From Nitrososphaerota archaeon (GTDB taxonomy: Archaea; Thermoproteota; Nitrososphaeria_A; Caldarchaeales; Calditenuaceae), in the NCBI GenBank assembly GCA_033581555.1, contig JAVQSZ010000002.1, positions 128,001-192,000 of the forward strand: DNA of 64,000 bases, read 5' to 3'. A program made the position numbers and the translations under genes. Every line of letters starts with the position of its first letter. The first letter of the stretch is position 1. Under the pieces are notes generated by a model. It did not search any database, had not been told where the DNA came from, and saw only the letters and a program-made list of their open reading frames with translations. Of the stretch, positions 49,128 through 57,807 are shown piece after piece.

Positions 49128-49931
49128 TTACTGCGGCGCCACCAGCGTCCCCTTCGGCTCCTCCAGGACCTTCAGTGGGTCCTCCACGAGCCCGTTGGAG
49201 ATGATGGCCAACTTCACGCCGAACGAGACGGCCTCACCGGCCAGCATCAGCTTCCTGTTCATTCCGGGACCGATCCGCTGCGACAGGTCGAACGCCTCTT
49301 GAGGCGTCAGCCTCCCCACGACTTCCCCGTCCACGAGGACCCCGTCGACGTCGCTGAGCAGCACTAGGGCGTCGGCCGAGATCGCCTTCGCGATGGAGGT
49401 CGCTGCCTGGTCTCCGTCGACGTTCAGGAGCTCTCCCTCCTCGCTGACCGCGATGGGCGCGACGACGACCGTGAACCCGCTCGAGGTCAGGAGCTCCAGG
49501 AGTTGGGGCGAGACGGAGGTGATCATCCCGGTGTACCCGCCCTCGATGACGCGCTTCCTCCCCCGGTCGTCGACCACGACTATCCTCTTCTTCCTCTCCG
49601 CCGTGAGCAGGCCGCCGTCGGCACCCGAGATCCCGACCGCCTTCACGCCGAGCTTCCTGAGGGCCGCGACGATCTCCTTGTTCAGCTTCCCTGCCATCAC
49701 CATGACGTAGACCTCGAGCTCCTGGAGGTCCGTGTACCTGCTCCTAATGCCCTGCGGCGATGTCACGAACTTCGGCTCGATCCCCATGCGCCTGGAGTAC
49801 TCGCTGACGACGTCACCCCCTCCGTGGACGAAGACGATCCTGTGGGAGCTGGAGCGCCTCGCGATGCTCTCCGCGATCCCCGTGAGGTTCCCGAGGAGCG
49901 CCCTGCCCCCTGCTTTCACGACGACCCTCAC
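49128..49931 (-). CDS. lysZ: [LysW]-aminoadipate/glutamate kinase
   Basis: K.GG, VHGGG, SP.G..SRYTD, GGYTG, LNVDGD. Confidence 0.85.
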   Translation of the reverse strand: MRVVVKAGGRALLGNLTGIAESIARRSSSHRIVFVHGGGDVVSEYSRRMGIEPKFVTSPQGIRSRYTDLQELEVYVMVMAGKLNKEIVAALRKLGVKAVGISGADGGLLTAERKKRIVVVDDRGRKRVIEGGYTGMITSVSPQLLELLTSSGFTVVVAPIAVSEEGELLNVDGDQAATSIAKAISADALVLLSDVDGVLVDGEVVGRLTPQEAFDLSQRIGPGMNRKLMLAGEAVSFGVKLAIISNGLVEDPLKVLEEPKGTLVAPQ

Positions 49932-55641: not shown

Positions 55642-56694
55642 TCACACCAACCTCCCCGTAGCGTGGGCCAGCTCGGCAGTCAGGATCGCTATCCCCGCGG
55701 CTCCCCTGACGAGGTTGTTGCTCAGCGAGACGAACCTGATCGTCCTCTCCCTCGCTCCCTTCCTCAACCTCCCGACGAAGACCGGCATGCCCCTCACGTC
55801 GCCCGCTTCTGCGTCGAGCCTCGGCTGAGGCCTGTCGGGCTCGCTCATCACAACGATCGGCCTTCGCGGCGCCGTCGGGAGCTCCAGCCTCTGCGGTAGG
55901 CCCTCGAAGGAGCTCAGCGCCTCGACTGCATCCTCGAGCCTGAAGTCCCTCCCGAGCTCGACTGAGACGGACGCGAGGTGGCCGACCAGCGTCGGGACCC
56001 GCGTGCAAGTGGCGTCGACCTCGAACCCAGCCGGCTCGACCCTGCCGTCCGCGAGCCTCCCCAGTATCTTCTTCGGCTCCGTCGAGACCTTCTCCTCCTC
56101 TCCCCTGATGTACGGGATCACGTTGCCGAGGATCGCCATAGAGGGGACGCCGTTGTAACCAGCTCCTGAGATGGACTGCATCGTCACGACGTCGACGTGC
56201 CTCACGCCGAACGCGTCGACGAGCGGCTTTAGGGGTAAGACGAAGGTCAGGGTCGTGCAGTTGGGCGTCGTCACGATGAAGCCGTCCCATCCCCTTCTCC
56301 TCCTCTGGACCTCGATCAGGTCGAGGTGGTCGGGGTTCACCTCTGGGACCATGAGCGGCACGTCGTCTTGGTACCTGTGAGCAGAGGCGTCGGAGAAGAC
56401 CGGGAAGCCGGCCCTCGCGAACCCCGGCTCGATGGTCCTCGCAGCCTCGGTAGGGAGGCAGCTGAAGACCAGGTCGACGTCGAACCTCTTCGGGTCCGAC
56501 GGCAGCACCTCTAGGTCCCTGAGCCTCTCTGGCACCTCGCCCCTCCCCCCGTAAGCCTCGGCCAACCTCCTCCCGACCGTCGTGTTCCCTGAGACGGCGG
56601 AGACCTCGAACCATGGATGCCCGTCCAGCATCCTCAGGTAGATCTGCCCGACCATGCCCGTAGCTCCCAGGACACCCACCTTCAACTTGCCCAA
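55642..56694 (-). CDS. asd: Aspartate-semialdehyde dehydrogenase
   Basis: GATG.VGQ, PEVN, PNCT, QS.SGAG, RVP...GH, N..RGAA; SD-like GGGGTGA. Confidence 0.95.
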   Translation of the reverse strand: MGKLKVGVLGATGMVGQIYLRMLDGHPWFEVSAVSGNTTVGRRLAEAYGGRGEVPERLRDLEVLPSDPKRFDVDLVFSCLPTEAARTIEPGFARAGFPVFSDASAHRYQDDVPLMVPEVNPDHLDLIEVQRRRRGWDGFIVTTPNCTTLTFVLPLKPLVDAFGVRHVDVVTMQSISGAGYNGVPSMAILGNVIPYIRGEEEKVSTEPKKILGRLADGRVEPAGFEVDATCTRVPTLVGHLASVSVELGRDFRLEDAVEALSSFEGLPQRLELPTAPRRPIVVMSEPDRPQPRLDAEAGDVRGMPVFVGRLRKGARERTIRFVSLSNNLVRGAAGIAILTAELAHATGRLV

Positions 56695-56749
56695 GCACGG
56701 TTCACCCCAGAGACGGAGGCGGAGGGGGCGGGCGCGGGTTCCTTCATCC

Positions 56750-56815
56750 TCAGTTCCCGAAGTAGAAGTAGGGGTAGGTCGTGAACCAGAACGCGTTCAC
56801 CGAGCTCAGGACCAC
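56750..56815 (-). CDS. Aromatic-amino-acid-rich leader peptide of the asd-aro operon (not in ORF track)
   Basis: SD-like GGAGGGGG, GTG start, MVLSSVNAFWFTTYPYFYFGN*: 4 Phe, 3 Tyr, 1 Trp within 11 consecutive codons. Confidence 0.8.
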   Translation of the reverse strand: MVLSSVNAFWFTTYPYFYFGN

Positions 56816-56853
56816 ACCTACCCCCTCCGCTCGGACTGCTCCGAAAAGACCAC

Positions 56854-56861
56854 GATAAAAA
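56854..56861 (-). promoter_or_regulatory. TATA box of the leader-aro transcript
   Basis: TTTTTATC on minus strand, placing the TSS near 56830, just 5' of the leader SD. Confidence 0.5.
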
Positions 56862-56925
56862 CGTGTGGCGAACCTTTTTGCCGCCTGAACCATAAAGCCC
56901 CGGAGTCCGCGCGTAGTTGCGGGTA

Positions 56926-57807
56926 ATGTCGCTGGAGGGCAAGGCGGTCGTCGGAGGGGCGGTGACGGTAGTCAACGCGATACCGACTGGAAAGGGGGCT
57001 GCGCTCGGAATAGGGCTGCGGACGCGGGCGAAGCTCAAGTTGGTCGAGGGCGGGTCCGGCGTGAGGTTCTTGAACGCGGATCGAGTCGGGGACGACAGGG
57101 TCGTCAGGGCGACGGTCGAGGAGGTCCTCAAGTGGTCGGGGACGGGGGAGTACGGCGTCGAGGTCGAGGTGCTCTCAGAGGTCCCGGTGGCAGTCGGGCT
57201 GAAGAGCTCGAGCGCCGCCGCGTCAGCGGTCGCCTTCGCGCTCTTCGACGCGCTCGGACTGCGACCGTCGCCCCAAGAGGCCCTGAGGCTGATCGCGGAG
57301 GCGTCGCTGAGGTCTGGGACGTCGATAACCGGTGCTGCGGACGATGCAGCTGCCTGCTTCATGGGAGGGTTCGTGGTGACCGATAACTCGACCAAGGCGC
57401 TCTTGAGGAGGGTGGAGATCGGGGGCGACCTCGTGGCGGTCGTCTCGGTCCCGAGGGGCAGGAGGACCTACACCTTCGAGTTCAAGCGCGAGCTCCTCGA
57501 CCCGTTCAGGCCGGCGTTCGATGCGGCCTTCGACCTGGCACTCCGCGGTGACCTCTTCGGGGCCATGACCGTCAACGGGCTCGCGATGTCCACGGCCCTC
57601 GGTTACGGCGCCGACGTCATCACGTCCGCGATGAGGAGAGGGGCGCGGTCCTGCTCGATCTCGGGGACCGGGCCAGCGATCGCCGCACTGGTCAGCAGAA
57701 TTGACTCCGGTGCCGTCTCCGAAGCCCTCTCGAGTTACGGCGACGTGATGGTCGTCGAGCTGAACAACGAGCCCGTGACCCTCGGGAGCGGGAGGCGCTG
57801 GCCTTGA
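56926..57807 (+). CDS. aroK: Archaeal shikimate kinase (GHMP family)
   Basis: GA.T.VNA..TG.G, P...GLKSSSA, S.TGA.DD, SGTGP. Confidence 0.92.

Follow-up and report, generated by a model that had tools for sequence, protein, structure and literature searches.

An aromatic-rich leader ORF, conserved and structured, ahead of the shikimate operon in Calditenuaceae: a candidate archaeal counterpart of bacterial leader-peptide attenuators

In bacteria, attenuation by leader peptides is a textbook mechanism, which depends on transcription and translation being coupled. The attenuators trpL, pheL and hisL of Escherichia coli carry a leader open reading frame (ORF) that is rich in codons for the end product of the operon and on which the ribosome stalls when the tRNA is uncharged. 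In translational attenuation of the ermC/cat type, a ribosome stalled on the leader is thought to keep a fold open, such that the downstream gene is expressed more and no terminator is needed. In the present work we analyzed a 64,000-nucleotide stretch of DNA from a Nitrososphaerota archaeon of the family Calditenuaceae, order Caldarchaeales (contig JAVQSZ010000002.1, positions 128,001 to 192,000; the whole stretch is called the window below), and describe a small ORF, rich in aromatic codons, that lies upstream of asd, the first gene of the shikimate (aro) operon. Bacterial leader-peptide transcription attenuators are summarized in PMC11802643. That article also covers the aroR leader upstream of the aroF operon of Corynebacterium glutamicum (Neshat et al. 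2014), a leader with Phe-Tyr-Phe codons that works by transcription attenuation and is described as responding to Phe and not to Tyr. Among archaea, ribosome profiling has identified translated small ORFs in the 5' untranslated regions (5'-UTRs) of Haloferax volcanii (PMC10117724) and Methanosarcina mazei (PMC11456600) of which some are described by the authors as reminiscent of upstream ORFs or leader peptide genes; as far as the accessible text of both reports goes, these show neither cognate-codon enrichment nor a conserved fold and are not tied to any amino acid pathway, unlike the leader presented here. Within the full-text literature, consulted partly as excerpts, we found no described archaeal amino-acid-sensing leader peptide, the supplements of archaeal ribosome-profiling studies being beyond the reach of the search.

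The leader in the window resembles trpL, pheL and hisL in that a short ORF with its own start signal is situated in the 5' leader of a biosynthetic operon, its end-product codons are clustered and conserved as codons (with Trp in 13 of 18 family members), and these codons overlap a conserved helix that a stalled ribosome would block, the 3' arm of helix P2 being formed by the Thr-Tyr-x-Tyr codons. Stalling on uncharged tRNA is presumed here. Unlike the bacterial attenuators, the leader is archaeal, is preceded by a TATA promoter, and has neither a hairpin-plus-U terminator nor an antiterminator, and its helices enclose the leader's own Shine-Dalgarno (SD) sequence and start codon. The proposed working of the leader, with a stalled ribosome that would keep the fold open and no need of a terminator, resembles that of ermC/cat. 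Unlike ermC/cat, where the downstream SD is buried in a hairpin, the SD of asd is located 7 nt outside helix P1 and its predicted accessibility is constant; furthermore, the stall signal would be tRNA charging and not an antibiotic. Functionally, the closest system is aroR as it is described in the cited excerpt, since there, as we propose for the leader in the window, one mixed aromatic leader acts on the common shikimate pathway at its entry and not on one of the branches. The two differ in that aroR is bacterial and placed at the DAHP synthase entry, whereas the present leader is archaeal and placed at the asd/ADH synthase entry, and the likeness is drawn from the description of how aroR works.

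Based on the analysis below, we consider it probable that the leader is a cis-acting peptide gene that senses charged tRNA-Tyr and tRNA-Phe, and in most members tRNA-Trp as well, on behalf of the asd-to-chorismate operon. The feature is real, being both conserved and structured, and the likeliest interpretation of it, as judged from comparison of sequences, is the one put forward in an earlier note that was made from the letters of this DNA, with the amendments that Trp is optional, that the structures of bacterial attenuation are absent and that mixed leaders are known in bacteria. The same note had presented the leader as a candidate for an undescribed system; this stands with respect to the lack of an archaeal precedent in our search and does not stand for the principle that one leader with mixed aromatic codons may serve the common pathway, for which the available description of C. 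glutamicum aroR is a precedent. In archaea, the leader would appear to be the first counterpart of the leader-peptide attenuators of bacteria.

The spacer between asd and the divergently transcribed gene is 222 nt in length and holds, on the minus strand, a TATA-like box, a G-rich stretch with a GGAGG core and the leader ORF (Table 1). From the position of the TATA-like box, the transcription start would fall approximately 21-25 nt 3' of it. The earlier note had described an SD-led ORF of 21 amino acids (aa) between the TATA box and asd, ending 55 nt before asd, with aromatic residues of all three kinds at eight of 11 consecutive codons, and every one of these details was confirmed. The asd start codon is a TTG at 56694 that aligns with the ATG of sister species. 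A 47-aa version of the leader frame, starting at an ATG at 56893, was considered and rejected. The GTG at 56815 is the credible leader start because the ATG at 56893 precedes the TATA-like box and is kept in just 2 of the 18 family loci. Three sister species have ATG at the alignment columns where the three closest species have GTG. 

Table 1. Positions of the leader, its predicted RNA helices, and the neighboring genes in the window (SD, Shine-Dalgarno; nt, nucleotides)
Feature	Position	Strand	Basis or remark
TATA-like box TTTTTATC, leader-asd promoter	56861-56854	-	Sequence reading; AT-rich box equally spaced from the P1 5' arm in the family alignment
Whole structured leader	56836-56711	-	Covariance model R1, lone match in the genome, E 7.4e-13 (G000:C2:184711-184836)
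P1 5' arm, 12 nt, includes leader SD core	56832-56821	-	RNAalifold and pair counts; partner 56728-56716
Leader SD core GGAGG	56828-56824	-	8 nt ahead of GTG
P2 5' arm, includes start codon GTG	56819-56812	-	RNAalifold and pair counts; 7/8 pairs form here in the conserved register
Leader start codon GTG	56815-56813	-	Sequence reading
Leader ORF, 21 sense codons and TGA (56752-56750)	56815-56750	-	Sequence reading; start and stop kept in 18/18 family loci
Aromatic block, codons 9-19: 4 Phe, 1 Trp, 3 Tyr (8/11 codons)	56791-56759	-	Translation
P2 3' arm, inside Thr-Tyr-Pro-Tyr codons (family: Thr-Tyr-x-Tyr)	56777-56770	-	RNAalifold and pair counts
P1 3' arm, C-rich, anti-SD-like, ends 7 nt upstream of asd SD	56728-56716	-	RNAalifold and pair counts
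SD-like GGGGTGA of asd	56708-56702	-	Sequence reading; sister species have GGAGGTG ahead of the asd start
asd (aspartate-semialdehyde dehydrogenase), operon gene 1	56694-55642	-	PF01118, PF02774
ADH synthase, DHQ synthase II (3-dehydroquinate synthase II), aroD, aroE, EPSP synthase, chorismate synthase	55640-49928	-	Pfam and NCBIfam
Archaeal-type (GHMP-type) shikimate kinase, divergent	56917-57807	+	TIGR01920, 224 bits against a cut-off of 127
LysW-type kinase, next gene after the operon, other pathway	49128-49931		Pfam/NCBIfam

We compared the aromatic cluster with the rest of the 1.43-Mb genome (63.6% G+C) by counting all 11-codon segments free of stops in the six frames, 2,174,912 in total. 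Eight aromatic residues are reached in three of these segments and seven in 17, which excludes a chance origin of the cluster; the earlier note had called such codons unlikely by chance. The segments with at least seven aromatic residues fall in six loci of the genome, the leader ORF being one; the other five are at G000:C7:47871 (-), C9:31783 (-), C1:19339 (+), C6:10928 (+) and C14:2044 (-). The DNA runs in which the stretch is present are hot-spring metagenomes. The locus was intact across four DNA runs, with two single-base population variants, both from other hot-spring runs. One of them, a C>T at 56807, is a synonymous change in the third position of leader codon 3 and the sole variant within the ORF (n = 1, which is weak evidence). 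The other, a T>C at 56840, is situated upstream of P1, between it and the TATA-like box.

To follow the leader within the family, asd orthologues were located in 40 relatives, and 18 loci from four genera of the Calditenuaceae, the window's own family, formed the family set. An in-frame small ORF of 21-29 codons, with an ATG or GTG start and a stop, was present upstream of asd in all 18 loci. In one genus the sole leader start is an ATG approximately 25 nt past the TATA box, and the spacing suggests that the leader of that genus is probably translated from the extreme 5' end of the mRNA, without a 5'-UTR. The pattern F-[TA]-[TA]-Y-x-Y-F-[YF] is kept in the C-terminal half of the family leaders, while the remainder of the peptide is highly variable and the genera differ by a 3-nt gap in the variable loop of the family alignment. 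The three core codons after x are aromatic in 18/18 leaders, and the only differences among them are C/T at the third base or an exchange of Tyr and Phe. In one species the order of the three core codons is permuted, such that the residues are kept and the RNA sequence is not. Tyr and Phe occur in every family leader and Trp in 13 of the 18; in codon content, the earlier proposal that the leader integrates the availability of Phe, Tyr and Trp fits Tyr and Phe, with Trp not a constant part of the presumed signal.

The loci of one genus, g4 (L016, L017 and L018), have a leader-asd spacer that is approximately 35 nt longer than that of the other genera, and the extra segment contains an SD-like GAGGTG. 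L016 carries, in addition, a second small ORF, approximately 15 codons long, the stop of which is fused with the start of asd in an overlapping ATGA; this ORF may serve coupling as a second such element, or it may be the remnant of a duplicated asd start.

We analyzed the RNA fold of the leader with RNAalifold on the family alignment, followed by pair counting on the specified structure, with the 3' partners slid by 1-3 columns as a control. The overall fold consists of two stacked helices (P1 and P2) and a variable hairpin. P1, the outer helix, connects the first nucleotides of the presumed transcript, with the leader SD among them, to the C-rich stretch ahead of the asd SD, and P2, the inner helix, connects the region of the start codon to the Thr-Tyr-x-Tyr codons. 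Paired cells amounted to 87% of 468, compared to 42-58% in the slid controls, and ten pairs were changed on both sides, compared to 1-6. Compensatory changes were found at 9/16 pairs of P2; P1 shows an exchange of A-U and G-C in 6 of the 18 sequences, and a matching 2-nt insertion on both P1 arms is visible by eye in the window's genus. The G-U pairs, of which there are many, would be mismatches on the opposite strand, which assigns the fold to the sense RNA. Folded as a single sequence, the leader of the window was no more stable than shuffled sequences (z = -1.1), so the structural evidence rests on covariation. In 10 of the 18 family members, representing three genera, a Tyr codon is the pairing partner of the start codon itself; in the window it is the first Tyr codon. 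Covariation links the first base of the start codon, G or A, with the third base of the Tyr codon, C or T. The Tyr codons in P2 always keep T-A, and what covaries is the third base of these codons and the free x codon; this segment is therefore under constraints of coding and of pairing together. Two or three Thr/Ala codons stand directly before the Tyr codons in 17 of the 18 family leaders, and P2 pairing may account for them.

The covariance model (R1), built from the family alignment, found one match per genome, always upstream of asd, in 18 of the 19 family genomes. The family genome that gave no match is 73% complete and is also without an asd orthologue. No match was obtained in the 57 genomes of the other three families. 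A search against Rfam 15, including riboswitches, T-box and others, produced no match; the best hits had E values of 4.3-6.4, were well below the gathering scores and belonged to unrelated families. In the window's genus only, an alternative 9-bp register of P2 (56779-56771 with 56824-56816) competes with P1 for the G-run. Modeling of the competing registers predicts a switch in which the freed C-rich arm would pair into the early codons of asd.

The earlier note had called for a search for aromatic small ORFs upstream of asd and aro operons in related genomes, which was borne out in all 18 family loci and well beyond them. We scanned 80 loci around ADH synthase genes in public genomes and carried out a census of the 76 species genomes of the order. 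Differently built aromatic-rich small ORFs head the aro operons of other families, the first gene being aspartate kinase, asd or ADH synthase. The leader tally for Caldarchaeales came to 50 of the 65 genomes examined, with a leader in 18/18 genomes of the window's family and in 7/7, 8/8, 3/3, 9/9, 2/2, 2/2 and 1/1 genomes of seven further genera, the last without a canonical start codon. The three genomes of genus g5 (25% G+C) were not callable, aromatic small ORFs being plentiful on both strands. Among the last 16 residues, 7-10 are aromatic in the leaders of loci whose G+C content is 45% or higher, and antisense small ORFs never have more than 6. The largest other group of leaders ends in the pattern ...W-S-[YF]-x-Y-F...A-L-A. 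In this group, for which 19/20 sequences were aligned, the SD-bearing 5' arm pairs with the Phe/Leu-Trp-Ser codons, and an 8-bp hairpin, two pairs of which are compensatory, carries the stop codon in its loop and is followed by a T-richer spacer. The occurrence of [ST]-Y-x-Y-F in both the window's family and the largest group suggests that the leaders of both are probably homologous. In three further genera, the SD arm could be paired by eye with an anti-SD stretch at or just past the leader stop. What the leaders have in common is an aromatic ORF close to the promoter, with the ribosome-binding region of that ORF paired to sequence at or just past the regulatory codons.

The scans also returned more leader types upstream of the aspartate kinase-asd-ADH synthase genes, at L077, L078, L083 and L087 (public metagenome-assembled genomes, 61-64% G+C) and at L041 and L046; one of these types ends in ...Y-W-x-V-F-G-F-F-G-Y-S-W, and another ends in a Y/F run. 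In genome G038, the leader is followed by aspartate kinase and asd on contig C13 and the ADH synthase gene is on contig C6, where no clear aromatic leader was found upstream of it. An aromatic segment of eight residues over the ADH synthase start of the ammonia-oxidizing Nitrososphaeraceae was considered and rejected as a leader; it is without a start codon and results from an out-of-frame reading of the T-rich spacer between promoter and start.

We propose that the leader would work as follows. A first ribosome would load on the leader during transcription. With the aromatic tRNAs charged, it would reach the stop codon and the RNA would close behind it, P2 first and then P1, shutting the leader's own ribosome-binding site in what would be the low-expression state. 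With charged Tyr or Phe tRNA scarce, the ribosome would stall within the aromatic run, where it would lie over the 3' arm of P2, such that the start region would stay open; with the fold held open, asd and the genes that follow would be expressed more. In the largest other group, the stalled ribosome would also cover the 5' arm of the stop hairpin. Three candidates can be named for the output: the asd initiation region may be occluded by the closed rod 7 nt upstream of it, factor-dependent termination may occur on the exposed C-rich stretch, or the stability of the mRNA may depend on its 5' end. Oligo-T intrinsic termination is an unlikely output in this family. A broader proposal, which we put forward tentatively and with somewhat less than even confidence, is that the Caldarchaeales possess their own class of amino-acid-sensing leader peptides, which would differ in its working from both bacterial classes. 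In this class, the start codon and SD would be paired with the regulatory codons and with a C-rich stretch near the first ribosome-binding site of the operon. Whether the 5' end closes into a rod would depend on where the pioneer ribosome stands, and the output would pass through an archaea-specific step (for instance the loading of ribosomes on a near-leaderless mRNA, termination of the aCPSF1/FttA type or decay from the 5' end) and not through an intrinsic terminator or a buried SD.

Several results count against the leader being a sensor of tRNA charging. We found no bacterial-type terminator on the sense strand of 56600-56950 and no mutually exclusive terminator/antiterminator pair at the leader. 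The longest T-run in the leader-asd gap of the window is 1, and no T-run longer than 3 is present in 15 of the 18 family members; T4-T5 runs occur in the gap of just 3/18, and the gaps are T-richer in other leader types. We folded the 18 family sequences by partition function, at equilibrium and at both 37 and 70 °C, in the free, stalled and stop states; a 30-nt ribosome footprint was placed over the aromatic run for the stalled state and over the stop codon for the stop state. The accessibility of the asd ribosome-binding site was unchanged across the ribosome states in 17 of the 18 sequences at both temperatures, and P1 formed in all three states in most sequences. A simple switch that sequesters the SD of asd is accordingly not supported in those 17. 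The claim of an attenuation system is supported by comparison as regards the conserved ORF, its aromatic codons, the covarying helices and the leaders in other families, and is not supported as regards a terminator/antiterminator and an SD-sequestering switch. Trp is missing from 5 of the 18 family leaders, and the conservation of Tyr and Thr could stem in part from P2 pairing. In one genus of the order none of the 12 genomes examined has a leader, with asd directly after the TATA box. The organisms that carry the leader are all uncultured, represented by metagenome-assembled genomes. The earlier note had also suggested looking for cognate leaders at other biosynthetic operons, and none was found: the head of the trp operon, the head of hisD and the gene before pheA in this genome have no cognate leader in the three frames inspected. 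A scan of 949 upstream regions for runs of a single amino acid returned low-complexity noise only. These two negative results indicate a dedicated device and not a genome-wide system.

We weighed other explanations for the conserved leader. One is that the locus is a structured cis-regulatory RNA, either an aromatic-metabolite riboswitch or the site of a regulatory protein, with the ORF as a by-product of conserved, unpaired U/C-rich nucleotides. The strong covariation of P1 and P2, the short and pyrimidine-rich nature of the conserved unpaired stretch and the failure to find the alternative structures typical of attenuators are consistent with such an RNA. However, start and stop codons are kept in all 18 loci, and the permuted codons of one species preserve residues at the expense of the RNA sequence. 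An aromatic ORF is also found at the same place in families that the covariance model does not match, no Rfam family was hit (best E 4.3), and a junction resembling a ligand pocket is not evident. Taken together, these points make a riboswitch or protein site unlikely.

In bacteria, 5' helices protect mRNAs. A constitutively translated upstream ORF joined to a 5'-terminal helix, serving as a stabilizer of the mRNA 5' end or as an aid to ribosome loading for asd, would have no need of aromatic codons as a sensor. P1 does enclose the transcript in a helix at its extreme 5' end, and the predicted independence of the asd ribosome-binding site from ribosome position agrees with this explanation. 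It leaves unexplained why aromatic codon identity is kept across leaders that are differently built, and why the ORF is restricted to the aro operon, with one model match per genome and none at the other operon heads that were checked; we rate it slightly below the riboswitch or protein site. We consider it improbable that the product is a functional aromatic micropeptide, or that the nascent peptide arrests the ribosome in response to free Tyr or Phe, with [ST]-Y-x-Y-F acting in the ribosome tunnel and not through tRNA charging. The presence of this motif in both the window's family and the largest other group exceeds what codon enrichment would need; yet the motif overlaps the P2 pairing and may be merely inherited, variability is high in all other parts of the peptide, and the aromatic patterns of other genera differ. 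Finally, a chance ORF in a divergent promoter region, to which the short length and the GTG start might point, is refuted by the conservation, the segment statistics, the covariation and the covariance model matches and has a negligible probability.

If the leader does sense the charging of aromatic tRNAs, archaea would read tRNA charging through the position of the ribosome. A conserved, covarying leader, found order-wide, heads the archaeal, aspartate-semialdehyde-dependent shikimate pathway, and it offers a concrete sequence for the study of how stalling is converted to expression in a setting that lacks the terminator logic of bacteria. The pairing of the start codon with the Tyr codon is a simple feature that is open to mutational test. 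With regard to annotation, leader ORFs of 17-30 codons fall under the length usual in gene calling.

The genes around the leader are listed in Table 1. The asd gene of the aro operon is the single asd-like gene of the genome, the second match having 26% identity. In the route by which archaea make dehydroquinate, asd provides a substrate for ADH synthase. In other families (loci L112-L131 and L154-L172), a full-length aspartate kinase leads the same operon. Given the sole copy of asd and the place of aspartate kinase at the head of the operon in those families, the aromatic leader may additionally gate the supply of aspartate-semialdehyde for Thr, Met and Lys. In both genomes of genus g10 (G034:C3:52611-53393 and G048:C145:22465-23247), the ADH synthase match is full-length but for one in-frame TGA, for which recoding, a sequencing artefact common to both or a split gene could account.
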